From Vicugna vicugna (taxonomy: Eukaryota), in contig MU057989.1 in assembly GCA_013265495.1 (NCBI GenBank), forward strand, positions 2,001,513 through 2,034,011: DNA of 32,499 nucleotides, given 5' to 3'. The notes beneath the pieces are model-generated. The model was not told where the DNA came from. It saw only the letters and a program-made list of their open reading frames with translations, and did no database searches. A program made the translations under genes and the position numbers. Each line of letters starts with the position of its first letter. Position 1 is the first letter of the stretch. Positions 9,761 to 26,189 of this stretch are shown here, piece by piece.

Positions 9761-9852
9761 TATTTATTTATTTTTAATGGCAGTACTAGGGACTGAATCC
9801 AGGACCTTGTGCATGCTAAGCAGACACTCTACCACCGAGCTATACCCTCCCC
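9761..9852 (-). mobile_element. tRNA-derived SINE (vic-1-like)
   Basis: Reverse complement of the SINE head, ending ...GAGCTATACCCTCCCC; abuts an L1 fragment. Confidence 0.9.
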
Positions 9853-10111
9853 TCTTTATTGACTTGAATTGTCTAAGAATTTAGAAAGTCGCAGCTCTGT
9901 CTCTTCTTTCTAGCAGTAGATTCAGAAGAGAGGCCGGTTGATGGCCAAGCCCACGGACATAGCCTGGTTACAGATCCCTGGGGGGTGAGGAAACTGCTTG
10001 TCATCTCATTCCTGAAAAAGGGATTACATTCAAAGAACAGTTTATCTCTTGTTCAGGGCACTGATATGCTGCTTTTCTTTAAGTGCTAATAAAAACATCA
10101 CAAAGTAGAAA

Positions 10112-10270
10112 GTGGAGGGTATAATTCAAGTGGTAGAGTGCATGCTTAGCATGCTGAGATCCTGGGTTCAATCCCCAGTACTGCCATTAAAAAACATAAT
10201 AAATAAATGAATGAATAAATAAATAACCTAATTACCTTCCCGTACCAAAAACCAAACCAAAACAAACAGA
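10112..10270 (+). mobile_element. tRNA-derived SINE (vic-1-like)
   Basis: A and B boxes, A-rich tail, TSD AACATCACAAAGT/AACATTACAAAGT. Confidence 0.92.
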
Positions 10271-10327
10271 ACATTACAAAGTGGTCAACAGGATCACGAA
10301 TAGAGCAAGTGAAAGATTTAAAAAGAA

Positions 10328-10448
10328 ATTTTGGGGGCGGAGGTAATTAAGTGTACTTATTTATTTATTAAATGGAGGTACAGGGGATCGAATGCAGGAC
10401 CTCATACATGCTAAGCATGTGCTCTACCGCTGAGCTATACCCTCCCCC
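10328..10448 (-). mobile_element. tRNA-derived SINE (vic-1-like)
   Basis: Full reverse-complement copy; TSD GAGCAAGTGAAAGATT/GAGCAGGTTAAAGATT. Confidence 0.92.
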
Positions 10449-10886
10449 TGAGCAGGTTAAAGATTCTGAAGGACATGTCATTTCCTCATCCCTCTGCCCT
10501 CTGCCCTGTGGGATGCAAGCTGAGTACATTCTCTTTTGGAAGGGAGCGCACGGCCCCACACTTAATGTCCTGCTCTTCTAGTTGTGTTTATCAAACCCTT
10601 TTTCTTGTATATAGGAAGAATTCTCACCTGGGGAATGGACTCCGGCTACTTCAAGGGCTTCCCGGTCCAACAGCTGCTTAAAACCTTGGCTCCACAGAAG
10701 GGCAACAGCCACTGCGGACGGCGGTCTGCTGCGAGACAAAAGCAAAGCAAAAAGAACAACATCAACTACCAACAACAACAAAAACACCCCTACCTCCCTG
10801 GTACTTTCATCCTCCTGGGCAGCTTTAGTCTCCGTAAATGTCCCTCTTTGGTGGACTTTTTCATTTATTAAAATATCTCCCCAGAT

Positions 10887-10992
10887 GGGAGAAGGTACAG
10901 CTCTGTGGTAGAGTACGTGCTTAGCATGCATGAGGTTCTGGGTTCAATCCCCAGTACCTCTGTTAAAAATATTTTAAAAAATAAAAATAAAC
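10887..10992 (+). mobile_element. tRNA-derived SINE (vic-1-like)
   Basis: A and B boxes; TSD AAATATCTCCCCAGAT/AAATATTTCCCCAGAT. Confidence 0.92.
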
Positions 10993-11939: not shown

Positions 11940-12400
11940 TCCTACTAGATCTTAACTTTCTACAGTAGTGTTAGATTTATAGAAAAAAGGAGCCAATAGT
12001 AGAGTCCCACACTGTATCTTTTCAGTTTTCCCTATCATTAACAGTCCTCTATAGAGTGTATTATACACACTGTTAATCATCGTTAAAATCAACAATAGTG
12101 ACACATTACTATGAAACAGTTCCTACTTATTCCCATTTCCTTAATTATTATTATTATTTTTAACCAATTATCCCTTTTGTGTTGCAGGACCCCACATTGC
12201 CTGTCATCTCACCATCTCCTTAGGCTCCTCTTGCTTGTCACGTTTTCCCAGACTTGCATAGGTTTTGATCACCTTGACACTTTTGAGGCGCACAGCCTGC
12301 CCCTCCTGGAAGTCGTGTAAGGTTTTCGCCAAGATTAGGGTGGGATTATATGTTTTGGGTACGAAGATCAAAGAGGTCAAGGACCATTTACATCACATGC
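11940..12400 (-). mobile_element. Old L1 (L1MC-type) 3' UTR fragments
   Basis: TTAGATTTATAGAAAA...; CATCTCCTTAGGCTCCTCTTG...GACCTTGACACTTTTGAGG-like motifs. Confidence 0.6.
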
Positions 12401-12987
12401 AAATTTTCTCTCTCCAAACAAGTTGTTTCAGGTGTTGGAGCTTCCGTTTTCTGGAAAGAGGTCTTGAATGGTGGGTGCAGGCACTCAGTGAGCGCGGCTC
12501 AGGGTCATACCGCCGGGCTCCGCGGGCTGCAGGTTCCCCCAAGGTGGGCAGGTGTGGTTCCTACAGCTGTGGCTGCGGGAGACCTCAGCCTGGAGAGAAG
12601 GGCCTTCTAGAAGACATGGAGGCTTCGAGGACGGTGGAGTCCTCCGAGGCCGCCCGGCTTCCTCCCCTGACCCCCTTCCCAAATTCTCTCCGCTTGGCAC
12701 CCGAGGAGCCCGATCTGCCCCAGCCCACATGGCTATGCAGCCGGCCAGAGACCCTCGCAAACTCAGCCTAGCGGGCCTGGGGGTGTTCCAGGGCCCTCAG
12801 ACGGCGGAGTCGGTGACGGACAGCAACCCTGTTCCGGAACCGCTGGTTCGGAGGGCCGGAGGGCCGGAGGGGCGCGGCGGCTGCGGCGGCTGCGGCGGGA
12901 TGCTGGTCTGGGCGCGCGGCAGGGGCGGGGCCGGAGCCGTGAGAGGCCGCCTCCCCAGCTCCCTCCCTCCCTCCTGCGCCCTGGGAG

Positions 12988-13114
12988 ATGCTGCTCCCGG
13001 TGTCCCACCGGCGCCCGGGGCATCGTCGTGCCCTAAGTCTGAGGCAGATTCCAGACGACAGTTACAACCCAGAGATCCTTTACGTGGAGCTGTGGATGCT
13101 GCCCGTGTTGTTCG
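12988..13114 (+). CDS. KHDC1: Exon 1 of a KHDC1/KHDC3L/DPPA5/OOEP-family atypical KH gene (MLLPVSHRRPGHRRALSLRQIPDDSYNPEILYVELWMLPVLF/G)
   Basis: ATG at 12988 with G at -3, inside a CpG island. The peptide NPEILYVELWMLPVLFG resembles, from memory, KHDC3L NPKVVRLEVWLVEKIFG and DPPA5 DPEVFQVQTRLLKAIFG. Strong phase-1 donor CG|GTGAGT at 13115, at the position where this family's first intron falls. The symbol is a family-level, 5'-exon assignment. Confidence 0.8.
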
Positions 13115-13336
13115 GTGAGTGAGCCCGGAGCCCCGCGCCCTTGGATGTCCGCCGGTGGCATCCGGTCCGATGCCGCCCACGTTACTTCTCACGGGTGGGG
13201 CTCTGTCAGTGCCCCCGAAGTTTCCTGGAATCCTGGACGCTCCGTGGGCCAGTCTGGGCGGACTCCGACCCCGAGGGCCCCTTCCCTTCGTGACCCTGGG
13301 GCCCGAGGCTCAGCACCCCTCTCCTCCCCTCCCCAG

Positions 13337-13519
13337 GCCCGGACTGCCAACTGATGACGGCGCTCCACCGGTGGTGGTGGTTCGGGGTCTTACTCGTGGT
13401 GAGCGCGGTCCCAGGATGCGGAGTCCTGATCTTCATTATTGGGCTGCCCTTCTACCAGCATCTTACGATGCTCCTCATCGTGGCGATGTCTTTCCAGCTT
13501 CGGATCCGCGAAAACCGAG
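13337..13519 (+). CDS. KHDC1: Exon 2 of the KHDC1-like gene (G/PDCQLMTALHRWWWFGVLLVVSAVPGCGVLIFIIGLPFYQHLTMLLIVAMSFQLRIRENR), hydrophobic
   Basis: Polypyrimidine tract plus CCCCAG acceptor (13335-13336); in frame with exon 1; phase-1 donor GAG|GTAGGA at 13520. Closely resembles the recalled human KHDC1 N-terminus MLSAFQRLFRVLFVIETVSEYGVLIFIYGWPFLQTLAMLLIGTVSFHLWIRRNR. Confidence 0.88.
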
Positions 13520-13867
13520 GTAGGAGTTGCAGGGGTCCCAGCAGGGAATGCTTCCTCCGCCCAGGAGCCCGGGAAGGTGGACTTGCTTGCTGCATCTTTG
13601 CGGCTCATTCCACTTCCTTAGTCTCAGGGCCTGGGACAGTTTTGAGAACAGTCACCAGGTCTTAAAAATCCCTGGGTGTGGGCCCCAGCTCCCGAGCCGG
13701 GAGAGCGAGAAGAGTTTGGGAAGGAGACAGGGGCAGGACCCAAAGGTGAAAATCTAGCACATCTCTGCACTCTGGGCGAGGGTCCTGGAGGGACGTGGCA
13801 GCAGCACTTTTCGGGGATGTCCTCCGCAGTCTCTTGTGGGCCTGCCCTACCACTTAGATAACTAGGA

Positions 13868-14057
13868 CAGCAGATTTCCAAGCGTAGTCCCAGGACCAGC
13901 AGGATCAGCATCACCTGGGAGCTTGTTAGAGCTGCAAACTCGGGTGCCCACCCTGACCCACGGAATCTGAAACTGGGGATGGGACCGAGTAATCTGTGTT
14001 TTAACATGCCCTGCAGCTAATTGTGTTACACACCAGAGTTTGAAAACCATCGCTCTA
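13868..14057. mobile_element. MER5A hAT-Charlie MITE in intron 2 of the KHDC1-like gene
   Basis: GGACCAGCAGGATCAGCATCACCTGGGAGCTTGTTAGA...AATCTGTGTTTTAACA...AGTTTGAAAACCA. Confidence 0.9.
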
Positions 14058-14104
14058 GGGTCGTCTCCTCAAAGCCTGCACCCAACCAGCTGCTTTCTTT
14101 TTAG

Positions 14105-14163
14105 CCAGAGCTCGGACCAGACGGCTGCTAAATTCTGCGCGGGCCTCCGGACACTCGGTTTAA
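14105..14163 (+). CDS. Probable terminal coding exon 3 (A/RARTRRLLNSARASGHSV*), giving a 122-aa product
   Basis: Acceptor TGCTTTCTTTTTAG| at 14104; phase compatible with exon 2; TAA at 14161-14163; AATAAA at 14378 downstream. Supported by splice logic only, with no recognisable protein homology. Confidence 0.5.
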
Positions 14164-14377
14164 GGCTGGGACCGGTCCTGAATCCCTTATCCTTATCCAG
14201 AAGTCAGCTCGTGGCGGACCTCACCACAGGGACGGCATTGCAGGGGGATGGAGGCCAGGAGGCTAAGGCGCTATGAAAGATGCAGATGACGATGGGCGTG
14301 GAGACCACCATCCTTCATTCTGTCACCTTCAAGTTATTGCAAGCTCAAGCTTTTAAGGAAAGTTTCAGTGGTTTTAT

Positions 14378-14420
14378 AATAAATGATCTTTATTGGTTTT
14401 GTCTTGTTTGGTTTTTTTTT
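14378..14420 (+). terminator. Candidate polyadenylation signal of the KHDC1-like gene
   Basis: AATAAA at 14378-14383 followed by a GT/T-rich downstream tract (TTGGTTTTGTCTTGTTTGGTTTT). Confidence 0.5.
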
Positions 14421-15247
14421 TAAAGTGAAAGTAAATTTATTTAGAGAGATACACACTCCATAGAGAGTGCAGGTGGTCTCAGAAGGCAAGAGAGAGAACG
14501 ACCCATCGGTTTGTGTTGATCAGTGTTCTTTCCAGGTTATAATGGGAAAAGGCAAAAAAAAAAAAAGTTTCCAAACTGTTTTCAGCTCCTCAGAGTGTTA
14601 GGGAAGGGGGTGATGGAATCTCTGGAGGAGTCCCCAATACCCTGGCTCTGGAATCAAGCTCACCTTTCCTGCCTGGGTCCCCACCGGAAAGAGCAGGGAG
14701 CTTCAGGGAGCAAGATGCCTGTTATGGGGGTACAGCCCAGCAGTCCAGGCAGGTGAAGGCCAACAGCTGTTCCTCAGTTGGGGTACTCCGGCTCTCTGCT
14801 AGCTTTTCAGGAACAATTCAGCTGCAGCTATGAGCTCTTTGAAGCCAGTTTGGAGGGAATTGAAGAACTTAAATGGAAACATGTGTGGAATATATCTGGT
14901 GAATGTGCTTGATAAGCAGAATTGATGCTCCGTATTTTTGTAGAGGTGGGGAACAGAGAAATAGCTGGTGATGGAGAGGGCATTGAGTCAACAGTGCTTT
15001 TATTTCCCTCAGTAGGATAGGATGGGATGGTGGGCCAGGTGTGATGCTGGGGGAGGGAGAGGCTAACAACCTAGAGGCAGGTGGGGATGATAGCGGCCCT
15101 CAAGCCCTGTGAAAGCAGGAAGAAAGCAAACCCAGGGCCCTGGAGGAGGGAGCAGCTTCTGGAAGGAGGAGCATATGTAAGAGGAGGCTCACAGGGCAGG
15201 ACTGGAAGCGTTGTGGAGAGATTCCTTTAGCCTGAGGAGAAAAACTT

Positions 15248-17459: not shown

Positions 17460-18140
17460 TTATTTTTGGGTGTTTTTTTGGGGGGAAGGGGATTGTTACT
17501 GAGTCCAAACTCGTTCTGCTCGCCGCATGACAGGCCAATAAATTGGGAGACAGGGTGTTGGGGCAAGGAATAGAGACTTTATTTGGAAAGCCGGCAGACA
17601 GAGAGGATAGAAGACTACTATCTTGGAGGACCATCCTACTCTAGTTAAAATACAGCCTCTCTTTATACAAAAAGAAAAACAAAAAACAAAAAACAAAAAA
17701 CAGGGTGGGCTATAGTTCGTTGTTGCAAACTTCTTGCTGTAGAAATTCTTTGTTCTTGTAGCCGTCCGTGTGGGTCAGGCCATGGTGTCCCTGAAAATAT
17801 CCAGGAAAAGAAAGGTTATTCTCTGTTTGCAACTTGCCATTTCTCATAAGTGCAGAAGTGCATCCTTAAAGGTCAGAGTCCTGAGAACAGGCTCTCCTGT
17901 CTATTTTAGGCTAAAGGCAACATTGTTTAACAAAAGGTGCAGAGCTGGCAAGACTGAGCCTGGAAAACAGGGCACATGATTATAACTAAAGGAAGAGATC
18001 CAGTATAGTTAGTTCTGTTCTCCTCTATTACAGGATTAGGTTTGTTTGTTTGTTTATTTATTTCTGGAGGGACCGGGGATGGAACCCAGGACCCGTGCAT
18101 GCTAAGCATGTGCTCTACCACTGAGCTATACCCTCCTCCC
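17460..18140 (-). mobile_element. tRNA-derived SINE split by a solo LTR (pieces 17460-17493 and 18033-18140)
   Basis: The SINE tail sequence is continuous across the LTR once the GGAT duplication is removed. Confidence 0.85.
17494..18032 (-). mobile_element. ERV1-type solo LTR
   Basis: TGTTAC...ATTACA ends; perfect 4-bp TSD GGAT; minus-strand TATAAA (17662-17667) and AATAAA (17578-17583). Confidence 0.9.
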
Positions 18141-18412
18141 ACCAGAAAATATCCTTAAATTCAAGAGTCTATGTTGTTTTTTTAGACAGTGCTCTTGCAC
18201 ATCTAGCGACTACGATGAAGTATCAGCAACACTTTTACCTGCACTGGGAAACCAAAGCTTTGTGTGACTCACTTTGTTGCAATATTTGCTTTATCACATG
18301 GTCTGGAACTGAACTCACAGTATTTCCGAGGTCTTACTGCACCTGGAATTTAATGAAAGATTTTATTGTGTTAATTGCAGATTCCCATGCAGTTTTAAGA
18401 AATAGTCCAGAG

Positions 18413-18563
18413 AGGGATGGGATAGCTCCATGGAAGAGCGTGTGTCTAGCAAGCATGAGGTCCTGGATTCAATCCCCAGTAACTCCATTAAACATAAGGA
18501 AAGAAAGAAAAATCCAACTACCTCCCCCCCAAGTAAAATCATACATTTTAAAAAATAATAAAA
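18413..18563 (+). mobile_element. tRNA-derived SINE (vic-1-like), diverged
   Basis: Head GGGATAGCTCCATGGAAGAGCG...GGATTCAATCCCCAG; TSD GAAATAGTCCAGA/GAAATAATCCAGA. Confidence 0.88.
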
Positions 18564-22297: not shown

Positions 22298-25200
22298 CCC
22301 GCATCATCTCCCTAAGCCCAACATCTCCCGAAGCCCGCATCATCTAGCCGAGCCCGCATCATATTCCCAAGTCGGCGTAGTATCTCTGAGCCTGCACCAT
22401 TTACGCACGCCTGTGTCATCTCCCAGAGCCGCATGATCTCCCGAAGCCCGCATTATCTCCCCGAGCAAACGTCTCCCCAAGCCCACATAGTCTCCGAAGC
22501 CCACATAATCTCCCCAAGCCTGAATCATGTCCCTAAGAACAATCATCTCGCCAAGCCGGCATCATCTCCCCAAGCCTGCATCCTCTCCCCAGGCCCGGAT
22601 GATCTCCAAAGCCCACATCATCTCCGAAAGCCTGCATCATCTCCCTGAGTCAACAGCATATCTGCAAGACCGCTTCATCACCCCAAGCCTGAGTCATCTC
22701 CCGCAGTCCTCATCTCCCGCAGTCCAATCATCCCCCAAGCCTGCATCGCTCTCCAAGCCGAAGTCATCTCCCTGAACCCGTGTCGTGAACCCAAGCCGGT
22801 GTCATGTCCTAGAGCCCACGTCATATCAGCGAGCCCAAGTCATGTCTGCGAGCCTGAAAAATGTCTGCAAGCCCGCTCCACCTCCCGGGGCCCCCACCAT
22901 CTCCATGAGCCCACGTCATCTCCCCGAGCCGGTGTCATGTCCTCGAGCACGTGCCATGTCCCTGAACCGACGCCATATCAGGGAGCCCACATCACCTCCA
23001 CGAGGCTGGGTCATCTCCCTGAGCCCGGGTCATCTCCCTGAGCCCACGTCATCTCTCCGAGCCAACATCTCCCCAAGCCAACATCATCTCCTCAAGTGTG
23101 AATCATCTCTCCGAAACCCACATATTTCCAAACCCACATCTTCCCAAGCACACATCAGCTCCCCAAGTCCACGTTATATGCCTAAACCCATGTCGTGTTC
23201 CCGAGCCGGTGTCGTGTCCTCGAGCCCGCGTCATATCAGTGAGCCCAAGTCATGTCTGGGAGCCTGTAAAATGTCTGCAAGCCCAACTCATCTCCCCGAG
23301 CTGCTGTCATGTTCTGGAGCCTGCGTAATGATCCGAGCCGACGCCATATCAGGGAGCCCACATCATCTCCACGAGCCTGTGTCATCTCCCGAATACCACA
23401 TAATCTCCCCAAGCCCAATCATCTCCTCAAGCCCAAATCTCTGAAAAGGCACATTATCTCCCCAAGCCTGCATCATTCCCAAGCCCGCATCATTTCCCCA
23501 AGCCCGCATCAGCTCCCCAAGCCAAAATCTCCTAAAAGGCACATTATATCCCCAAGCCCGCATCTTTTCCCAATCCTGCATCATCTAGCCGAGCCTGTGT
23601 CATGTCCCAAAGCCGGCGTAATATCTGCAAGCCCACATCATTTACACAGACCTGCATCATCTCCTCAAGCCAACATCATCTCCCCAAGCCCGCATCGTCT
23701 CCCCAAGCCCGCATCATCTCCCCAAGGCCAATAATTTCCCCAAGCCCGCATCATCTCCCTAAGCCCAATCATATCCCCAAGCCCATATTATCTGCCCAGG
23801 CCCAATCACCTCCCCAAGCCCGCATCATCTCCCCAAGGCGACATCATCTCCCCAAGCCTACATCTCCCAAAAGGCACATTATCTCCCCAAGCCCGCATCT
23901 TTTCCCAGTCCTGCATCATGTAGCCGAGCCTGTGTCATGTCCCAAAGCTGGCGTAATATCTGCAAGCCCGCATCATTTTCGAGACCTGCATCATTTCCTC
24001 AAGCCAACATGATCTCCCCAAGGCCACATCATCTCCCCGAGCCCACATAGTGTCCCCAAGCCCGCATATCTCCCCAAGCGCGCATCAAACCCCCAAGCCC
24101 GCATCATGTTTCCTGGCCCACATGTCCCCAAGCCGACCTCACCTCCCTAAGCCCGCATCATGTCCCCAAGCATAAATCATCTCCCAAAGCCCGCATGATC
24201 TCCCAAGCCCATGTCATCTCCCAAAGCCTGCATGATCTCCCTGAGCCCACAGCATATCTGCAAGACTGCTTCATCACCCCAAGCCCGAGTCATGTCCCAC
24301 AGTGCAATCATCTCCCCAAGCCCACATCATGTTTTCAACCCACATCTCCCCAAGCCCGCATCATGTCCCCAAGCCCACGTATTCTCCCTGAACCCGTGTC
24401 GTGTTCCCGAGCCGGTGACATGTCCTTGAGCCCACGACATGTCAGCGAGCCCAAGTCATGTCTGCGAGCCTGAAAAATGTCTGCAAGCCCGCTCCACCTC
24501 CCGGGGCCCCCATCATCTCCATGAGCCCACGTCATCTCCCTGAGCCGGTGTCATGTCCTCGAGCACGTGCCATGTCCCTGAACCAACGCCATATCTGGGG
24601 CCCCCATCATCTCCACGAGCCCGGGTCATCTCCCTGAGCCCGCATCATCTCTCCGAGCCAACATCTCCCGAAGCCAACCTCATCTCCCCAAGTCTAAATC
24701 ATCTCTCCAAGCCCACATATTTCCAAACCCACATCTTCCCAAGCGCACATCAGCTCTCCAAGTCCACGTCATCTGCCTGAACCTGTGTTGTGTATCCGAG
24801 CCGGCGTCATGTCCCAGAGCACATTTCGTATAAGTCAGCCCACGTCATGTCCACAAGCCTGAAAAATGTCTGCGAGCCCGCATCATCTCATGCCCCTGTG
24901 TCATGTCCCCATCCCACATCTCCCGAAGCCCGTTTCATGTCCCCAAGCCCACATCATCTCCCCAAGCCCACATCTCCCAAAAGGCACATCATTTCCCCAA
25001 GCCTCCATCATATCCCAAGCACGCTTCACCTAGCTGAGCCCGCATCATGTTCCAAGTCGGCGTAGTATCTGCGTTCCTGCATCATTTACGCATGCCCGTA
25101 TAATCTCCTGGAGCCACATCATCTCCCCAAGCCCGCATTCTCCCGAAGACTGCGTCATCTCCCAAAGACCAATCATCTCCTGAAGCCCACATCATCTCTG

Positions 25201-25740
25201 CAAGATGGCATCATCTCACTAAGCCCGCATCATCTCCCCAAGCCCACATCATCTCCCCAAGACCGCATAATCACCCCAAGCCTGCATCATTACCCCAATC
25301 CCGCATCATCTCCCGAAGCCTACATTATCTACACAACCCGCATCATCTCCCAAAGCCCGCATCATCTCTCTAAGCCCAATCATCTCCCCAAGCCCAAATC
25401 TCCGAAAAGGCACATTAACTCCCCAAGCCAGCATCATTTCCGAAGGCGCATCATGTAGCCGAGCCTGTGTCACATACCCAAGCCGGCTTAATATCTGCAA
25501 GCTCACATCATTTACATAGGCCCGAATCATCTACCCAAGCCAACATGATCTCTCCAAGCTCACATCATCTCCCCTACCCCACATAGTCTCCCCAAGCCGG
25601 CATCATCTCCCCAAGCCTGCATCATGTCACCAAGTCCACATCATCTCCCAATTCATCCTCACTTCCGTAAGCCCGCATCATGTCCCCAAGCATAAATCAT
25701 CTCCCTAAGCGCGCATGATCTCCAAGCCCGCATGATCTCC
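22298..25740. repeat. Satellite array, monomer about 19 bp (CATCATCTCCCCAAGCCCG), with higher-order structure
   Basis: Continuous degenerate tandem copies; distinctive variant blocks recur at offsets of about 335 and 1520-1616 bp. Confidence 0.97.
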
Positions 25741-25951
25741 CTTCCCACCCCCCCATCCCCCTGTCAACCACAAGTTTGTATTCTATGTCTATGAGTCTGT
25801 TTCTGTTTTGTATTTATGTTTTTTTGTTTTTTTGTTTTTTTTAGACTCCACGTATGAGTGATTTCATACGGTATTTTTCTTCCTCTTTCTGGCTTACTTC
25901 ACTCACAATGACATTCTCCAGGAACATCCATGTTGCTGCAAATGGCATTAT
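25741..25951 (-). mobile_element. Young L1 3' UTR fragment (near-copy of 30328-30537)
   Basis: Nearly identical to the L1 at 30130-30648; starts abruptly at the satellite edge. Confidence 0.9.
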
Positions 25952-26189
25952 NNNNNNNNNNNNNNNNNNNNNNNNNNNNNNNNNNNNNNNNNNNNNNNNN
26001 NNNNNNNNNNNNNNNNNNNNNNNNNNNNNNNNNNNNNNNNNNNNNNNNNNNNNNNNNNNNNNNNNNNNNNNNNNNNNNNNNNNNNNNNNNNNNNNNNNNN
26101 NNNNNNNNNNNNNNNNNNNNNNNNNNNNNNNNNNNNNNNNNNNNNNNNNNNNNNNNNNNNNNNNNNNNNNNNNNNNNNNNNNNNNNNNN
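25952..26189. other. Assembly gap (238 N)
   Basis: Run of N. Confidence 1.

Follow-up and report, generated by a model that had tools for sequence, protein, structure and literature searches.

The stretch of DNA dealt with here (the window) comprises 32,499 nucleotides (nt) of the Vicugna vicugna genome (assembly GCA_013265495.1, contig MU057989.1; C1192:2001513-2034011, plus strand, in the contig numbering used below for this animal's own assembly), and within it lie three short exons that very probably form an independent and complete gene of the camelid genome, a divergent paralogue in the eutherian OOEP/KHDC3(FILIA)/DPPA5/KHDC1 family. A stand-alone three-exon gene had been proposed at this place in an initial annotation made from the letters alone. 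Its exon and splice model was reproduced in full: the script-joined segments 12988-13114, 13337-13519 and 14105-14163 give 369 nt, i.e. 122 codons plus TAA, uninterrupted, with two GT-AG introns both in phase 1 and with AATAAA and a GT-rich tract beyond. The parts of the gene are as follows (positions are those of the window unless a locus or contig is named, and a slash in a motif marks an exon boundary).

12916..12987, plus strand: 5′ untranslated region (UTR), minimum extent, set by the start of the match to retrocopy L009 (see below)
12988..13114, plus strand: exon 1, coding part, 127 nt (42 codons and 1 base), donor TCG/GTGAGT
13115..13336, plus strand: intron 1, GT-AG, phase 1, missing from retrocopy L009
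13170-13194, plus strand: alternative first exon of predicted isoform X3 (protein model P0035 opens with the translation of 13170-13193), GT donor at 13195
13337..13519, plus strand: exon 2, 183 nt, long polypyrimidine tract before the acceptor, donor GAG/GTAGGA
13520..14104, plus strand: intron 2, GT-AG, phase 1, missing from intronless copies L009, L011, L012 and L015
14105..14163, plus strand: exon 3, coding part, 59 nt, acceptor TTTTTAG/, stop codon TAA at 14161-14163
14109..14109, plus strand: alternative acceptor 4 nt downstream, TTTTTAGCCAG/A, whose use shifts the frame and gives the predicted 109-amino-acid (aa) isoform X2
14164..14398, plus strand: 3′ UTR, AATAAA at 14378-14383, cleavage near 14398, about 15 nt past AATAAA

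Intron 1 interrupts the Gly codon that follows Phe (TTC G/GC) in phase 1, the same split of an ‘F-G’ codon that had been pointed to as a mark of the family. Exon 1, of which 40 of 42 residues are the same as in the camel protein P0003, codes for the start of the KH-like domain, its first strand and helix, as far as an L-F-G loop (judged by an AlphaFold2 model and an alignment to OOEP, both considered below). With no ATG within 12916-12987, the AUG at 12988 is the first in the captured transcript, and a stop codon lies upstream in frame at 12940; exon 1 is part of the mRNA. Transcription starts at 12916 or upstream of it, in a GC-rich region (GC 0.57-0.61 over 12001-14000). Two camel models, P0005 and P0006, carry long extensions at the N-terminus that draw on an upstream open reading frame (ORF) at 12350-12860; the window does not support them, since its in-frame stop at 12940 closes that frame and the retrocopy starts at 12916. 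Exon 2 is the homologue of the KH-like core and over its extent shows 100% identity with P0002, an alpaca protein, and the tail encoded by exon 3 is basic, with 5 Arg and 0 acidic residues. The AATAAA at 14378, followed by a G/T-rich run, is the sole poly(A) signal in 12-16 kb. At the start of exon 3 there are tandem acceptors 4 nt apart (14103-14109, TAG/CCAG/), the downstream one being used in isoforms predicted in alpaca and camel; the C-terminal residues of P0002 and of P0037 correspond to 14108-14128.

Evidence that these exons have been joined in nature comes from elsewhere in the same genome. A genome search with P0003 gave a contiguous, stop-free match to its residues 1-120 on contig C10560, at the locus designated L009, and three further intronless copies and one copy that keeps the introns were also found.

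L009 1425-2098 (C10560 ~2196474-2197147): retrocopy with intact 120-codon frame, poly(A) remnant and target-site duplication
L011 1500-1805 (C2062) and L012 1500-1799 (C4943): older intronless fragments, mRNA positions 120-433, 77% identity
L015 1500-1613 (C2791): older intronless fragment, mRNA positions 318-431, 79% identity
L013 161-3188 (C724): intron-containing paralogue, a copy of window 12001-15052 at 81.5% identity

Window segments 12916-13115, 13336-13519 and 14103-14398 stand head to tail in L009 at 95-97% identity, and the whole 676-nt modelled mRNA aligns to it with indels of only 4 nt and 6 nt and with 0 gaps at the junctions, which are exactly those of exon 1 with exon 2 and of exon 2 with exon 3. 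The copy continues into the poly(A) remnant AAAATAAAAAA and then GAAACAGGGCA, the latter being a copy of the bases directly 5′ of the insert, i.e. a target-site duplication of 11-13 bp. A poly(A) remnant, a target-site duplication and loss of introns are the hallmarks of a processed retrocopy made by L1, and on these marks L009 is a natural cDNA of a spliced, polyadenylated three-exon mRNA. Such an mRNA existed in the germ line. As retrocopies are heritable only when they arise there, expression in germ-line or early embryonic cells is implied. L009 lacks two extra Trp codons of its parent, as do the camel proteins, and with its intact frame it could itself be expressed.

The older fragments L011, L012 and L015 all run unbroken over the junction 13519^14105, and L011 and L012 cross the first junction as well. 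Every one of the four intronless copies is joined at 14105 and none at the alternative 14109. L011 and L012 have lost the frame through 2-3 TGA codons; being 94% identical to one another, flanks included, they probably derive from one retrotransposition event and a later segmental duplication. L013 has kept the splice sites; it has a frameshift and stops, its exon 1 differing in length by 5 nt, and it is probably a pseudogene. Three camel paralogue models, P0007, P0008 and P0030, may correspond to it.

Membership of the family is indicated in several ways. Against the Pfam profile MOEP19 (PF16005) of an atypical KH-like domain, for which the cut-off is 30 bits, camel P0003 scores 36.8 bits over residues 26-92 (profile positions 12-79 of 86), a match that spans exons 1 and 2, and a second camel protein, P0038, scores 33.6 bits; goat and reindeer proteins reach 24-25 bits and alpaca P0036 18.9 bits (E 0.0014). 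A match to this domain had been put forward as a check on the initial annotation, and it was obtained for the camel orthologues, the alpaca protein itself staying under the threshold. With phmmer, P0003 has 11 matches at E <= 10 among 177,635 PDB sequences, the top 10 being all OOEP or KHDC3/FILIA. The best, human OOEP (E 1e-5), extends over residues 26-110 and so takes in all three exons, the Arg-rich start of exon 3 included; the alignment is strongest around the boundary of exons 1 and 2, and the exon 3 tail aligns with the C-terminal helix of OOEP. Neighbours in the ESM Atlas all scored below 0.85, which is the level of noise; they were small hypothetical or membrane proteins from bacteria or viruses.

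A KHDC1-type gene is present in the same genome on another contig.

L017 7419-7840, equivalent to C556:77419-77840: KHDC1-type gene with its own ATG, first intron of 148 nt, second exon of 183 nt

Its exon 1 ends TTTG/GTGAGT, in phase 1 and within a Gly codon after Phe, and exon 2 is followed by a phase-1 donor. This canonical KHDC1 thus has in common with the window gene the position and phase of intron 1 and an exon 2 of 183 nt with a phase-1 donor; unlike the window gene it occupies a separate locus, has its own start codon and has a less hydrophobic exon 2. With a KHDC1-type gene that possesses its own Met and exon 1 elsewhere, a cDNA of the exact exon set and homology to MOEP19/OOEP, the proposal of a separate and complete paralogue is borne out. 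The window gene keeps the plan of the family, exon 1 ending in the Gly codon of an (L/I)-F-G loop, exon 2 supplying the rest of the domain and exon 3 a basic helix as in OOEP. The mouse genes Khdc1a and Khdc1b are described as three-exon genes (PMC2938380).

The gene is not confined to one animal and, though the initial annotation called it hidden, it is not hidden from annotation: models of RefSeq type for alpaca, camel and sheep include it under the name of an uncharacterised protein. When the exon 2 translation was used as query in a protein search, 19 proteins were retrieved, all camelid or ruminant, and the other protein searches likewise brought up no primate sequence. Three of the models are alpaca isoforms: XP_072798180.1 (P0036, 121 aa), XP_072798181.1 (P0002, 109 aa), which arises via the acceptor 4 nt downstream, and XP_072798182.1 (P0035, 88 aa), which arises via the first exon at 13170-13194. 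Alpaca supplies the best protein match: between the 122-aa product and P0036 all 121 of the 121 aligned residues agree, and the only gap is of one residue, where P0036 is missing a Leu. At that point (13100-13114) both the window and the retrocopy encode Leu-Phe-Gly, the RefSeq-type alpaca protein being without the Leu, and at 13364-13372 there are three Trp in the window and one in the retrocopy and in camels. Camel P0003 (XP_032316215.1) shares 114 of 120 residues with the 122-aa product. Three-exon models of about 120 aa exist for Camelus (P0003), sheep (P0058, XP_042110489.1), goat (P0012), reindeer (P0013) and rat (P0034, 128 aa), and models with exons 2 and 3 exist for two canids. Camel, sheep, goat, reindeer, canids and rat all show a conserved exon 3 tail, read in the 14105 frame. 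XP_072798180.1 in alpaca, XP_032316215.1 in Camelus and XP_042110489.1 in sheep represent the same gene with the same exon set, and are computer predictions only. The labels given by annotators are ‘uncharacterized protein’ or, for some isoforms, ‘KHDC1-like’. No description of it as a separate member of the family was found in the literature searched, outside which lay the original paper on the family (Pierre et al. 2007), which may bear on the matter; metagenome contigs scanned with P0048 and with P0044 gave no relative. It is a real family member, already predicted by annotation pipelines and uncharacterised in function.

What its protein might do is approached through its predicted fold and its composition, which point in different directions. 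AlphaFold2, run on P0003 with 16 aligned sequences, gives the order strand, helix, helix, strand, strand, long helix, that is, an alpha/beta fold of KH type with a C-terminal helix. The best Foldseek matches are OOEP-type chains from structures of the mouse cytoplasmic lattice and of the human and mouse subcortical maternal complex (SCMC), with template modelling (TM) scores of at most 0.70. The composition of the same segment is extreme. Hydropathy in 19-residue windows reaches 2.6, and exon 2 compared with exon 2 of the KHDC1-type gene on C556 has a mean Kyte-Doolittle value of +0.90 versus -0.23, 6 versus 11 charged residues and a longest uncharged run of 43 versus 15 residues; the 43-residue run is succeeded by the Arg-rich tail of exon 3. 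In the alignment to OOEP, which has a polar core where the window protein is hydrophobic, many polar OOEP positions are hydrophobic in P0003. The G-X-X-G site of a canonical type I KH domain reads G-P-D-C in alpaca and G-Q-D-S or G-Q-D-E in ruminants, G-P-D-G being present only in camel, and the segments that follow it are almost wholly hydrophobic. With so hydrophobic a KH-like core, RNA binding is doubtful, and going by its sequence the protein is not regarded as an RNA-binding KH domain. A hydrophobic, predicted membrane-anchoring C-terminal segment is reported for mouse KHDC1A (PMC2938380), where it comes after an ordinary KH-like domain; in the window protein, unlike mouse KHDC1A, the hydrophobic stretch is the core of the domain itself.

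A specific mode of action that we consider quite possible, and hold tentatively, is of a germ-cell or early-embryo protein that would not bind RNA and in which an OOEP-type scaffold would serve as a membrane-embedded or partner-buried module, with read-through to KHDC1 in some species. On this proposal the protein would be made in germ cells or early embryos; replacement of polar positions in its KH-like core would have left it no longer a soluble RNA-binding KH domain; the OOEP-type scaffold would be deployed either as a membrane hairpin whose two termini face the cytosol or as a hydrophobic subunit of an OOEP-like complex; and in some species read-through splicing from exon 2 to the downstream KHDC1 gene would yield the long ‘KHDC1’ models dealt with below. 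The structural model sits uneasily with the membrane hairpin, in that a soluble-type alpha/beta fold is assigned to the very residues that would be transmembrane. Confidence in the model is moderate, with a mean pLDDT (predicted local distance difference test score) of 68, rising to 76-83 for residues 51-110.

The conflict can be turned round, and of the other explanations the one that survives best takes the fold at face value. The protein would then be a soluble OOEP-like subunit that has kept the KH-like fold and works in an SCMC or cytoplasmic-lattice assembly, its hydrophobic surface buried by partners and not inserted in a membrane. The KH-like model with its best matches to OOEP chains from SCMC and lattice structures speaks for such a subunit, and the most OOEP-like stretch is the region of the boundary between exons 1 and 2. 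OOEP (also MOEP19 or FLOPED) serves as a scaffold subunit in the SCMC and in cytoplasmic lattices. One paper describes it as a scaffold to which NLRP5 and TLE6 bind, and counts KHDC3 along with it among the scaffold subunits of the lattice in oocytes (PMC13441485); the window protein would be no more than a candidate for binding TLE6 or NLRP5 or for a lattice role. Against a soluble subunit, the 43-residue uncharged run and the 19-residue hydropathy of up to 2.6 are typical of membrane segments, and the moderate confidence of the model is also pertinent, AlphaFold2 being assumed by us to follow homology whatever the solubility. On balance a soluble subunit of this kind is conceivable, with some doubt.

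Whether selection acts on the encoded protein is a separate matter, on which the evidence is mixed. On the one side, mismatches between the parent and retrocopy L009 number 5 in 363 coding positions and 14 in 307 UTR positions (Fisher p 0.018), so that divergence is lower in the coding part than in the UTRs, despite the higher CpG content of the former. The non-parental copies at 77-82% nucleotide identity are already frame-broken; more distant orthologues keep the frame, and the complete three-exon frame persists in alpaca, Camelus, sheep, goat, reindeer and rat. On the other, a number of results tell against a well-conserved family gene. The 5 coding changes relative to the retrocopy include 4 that are non-synonymous, a ratio of about 1.4 on very few changes; relative to L013 the exons, at 81.9, 88.7 and 88.1% identity, are no more alike than the introns, at 91.8 and 88.7%; a fin-whale model, P0032, shifts frame inside exon 2, and carnivore models are without exon 1. 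Identity to ruminant proteins is just 69-72 of 122 residues, from which it follows that the protein evolves fast. To these can be added the MOEP19 score of the alpaca protein, and the behaviour of a 16-sequence orthologue profile, which finds the same ten PDB chains only at E 0.04-0.6 and so more weakly than the single sequence does. Rapid evolution is common among oocyte-expressed genes.

These results could be read to mean that the RNA is transcribed and spliced while its reading frame is under no selection at the protein level, the locus being a decaying family member or the source of a non-coding or regulatory transcript, with the ORF surviving through a short evolutionary distance and its GC-richness. 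The preponderance of non-synonymous differences from the retrocopy, exons conserved no better than introns in the comparison with L013, the disruption of L013 and of the whale model, and the sub-threshold Pfam score in alpaca are all in line with this, as are an alpaca-specific insertion of two Trp and a one-Leu difference, both inside the domain. It is nonetheless improbable, for the same three-exon frame is found in the six mammals just named and the exon 2-3 frame in two canids, non-parental copies at 77-82% identity have lost theirs, the coding part has diverged from the retrocopy less than the UTRs despite its CpG content, and the exon 3 tail has been kept in the 14105 frame and not in the 14109 frame.

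The relationship to long ‘KHDC1’ brings in the neighbourhood of the gene. Models of fusion type exist, P0009 (326 aa), P0018 (reindeer, 396 aa) and P0027 (295 aa). The second half of P0027 is a complete MOEP19 domain (105.5 bits) with its own Met before it, and a whole KHDC1 domain with its own Met fits read-through of two genes. Within the window, tblastn with all fetched proteins gave no match outside the three exons, and over 86 kb of C1192 the same search returned only these exons and the upstream ORF extensions of the two camel models, with no KH-core exon. A Pfam scan of 300 of the 334 window ORFs of at least 45 aa yielded 0 families (the ORFs outside the scan were those at 12262-14420 on the plus strand, the minus-strand ORFs in a minisatellite at 22-25.5 kb and the last four on the plus strand), and a whole-genome MOEP19 scan placed no MOEP19 exon on C1192. 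A match designated L002 at C1192:2003208-2003450, which occurs on both strands and in several frames, was read as a repeat and set aside.

A Mab-21 (cGAS-type) gene lies 65 kb upstream of the gene on C1192, and no other MOEP19-type exon was detected between the two in C1192:1950001-2014000, the interval in which, from the human order, OOEP, KHDC3L and DPPA5 would be expected. Other MOEP19 matches are on contigs C4623, C9932 and C516. That C1192 has no other MOEP19 exon may be due to fragmentation of the assembly, a different gene order or limited sensitivity. Downstream, C1192 ends about 21 kb after the gene, following a 1.7-kb run of N. On C556 the KHDC1-type gene is 77 kb in, on the same strand, and KCNQ-type exons are beside it on the opposite strand from about 87.7 kb. 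The content of the two contigs agrees with the human order, KCNQ5-KHDC1-...-CGAS, and for that reason they may be neighbours and read-through is physically possible.

According to a review, ruminants and horse have neither KHDC1 nor DPPA5 (PMC7226043), and despite that reported absence of ruminant KHDC1 sheep, goat and reindeer have an intact copy of the short gene. The idea that the three exons are merely the 5′ part of a long KHDC1 unit, exon 2 being spliced to distant KH-core exons and the short RNA being a minor product of premature termination, can draw on the existence of the three fusion models and on a gene some 21 kb from a contig end with a KHDC1-type gene on the same strand of a contig that may abut. 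It is very improbable: exon 3 is present in each of the four intronless copies, and the match of L009 stops at the poly(A) site of the short gene itself; every isoform model seen, three from alpaca and two from camel, is short; the KHDC1-type gene starts from a Met and an exon 1 of its own; the linker segments of the three fusion models are unlike each other; no KH-core exon was found in 86 kb of C1192; and ruminants, said in the review to lack KHDC1, keep the short gene (PMC7226043). Taken together, the short gene stands alone, with fusion to KHDC1 at most an additional, lineage-dependent isoform. A bolder account would make it an ancient eutherian OOEP-like gene whose KH-like core has become a membrane-inserted hairpin with the exon plan kept, which persists where KHDC1 has been lost, and which, captured by read-through, would be what other mammals, perhaps human too, have annotated as the N-terminal part of long ‘KHDC1’; as a whole this is rather unlikely.

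The remainder of the window has a few other features.

22298-25741: 3.4-kb minisatellite in which a C-rich unit of 19 bp is repeated about 186 times; GC skew strongly negative
25952-26189: assembly gap, after the minisatellite
9778-10962 and 18065-18487, both strands: six matches to tRNA models just over threshold (29-45 bits)

The six tRNA-model matches are most likely copies of tRNA-derived short interspersed nuclear elements (SINEs) and not tRNA genes.

The OOEP/KHDC3L/KHDC1 family includes maternal-effect genes required for the first embryonic divisions. An independently transcribed and extremely hydrophobic extra member would be a new candidate link of the family to membranes or to hydrophobic partners, and if the hairpin reading were true, the family would include a membrane-bound protein of germ cells and embryos that has so far gone unrecognised. 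The gene survives in ruminants, which the review reports to be without KHDC1 and DPPA5 (PMC7226043). Where ‘KHDC1’ is annotated as a single long gene, the first exons of that model may be those of another gene, and such mis-assignment would affect the reading of expression data, knock-outs and variant calls at the KHDC1 locus.

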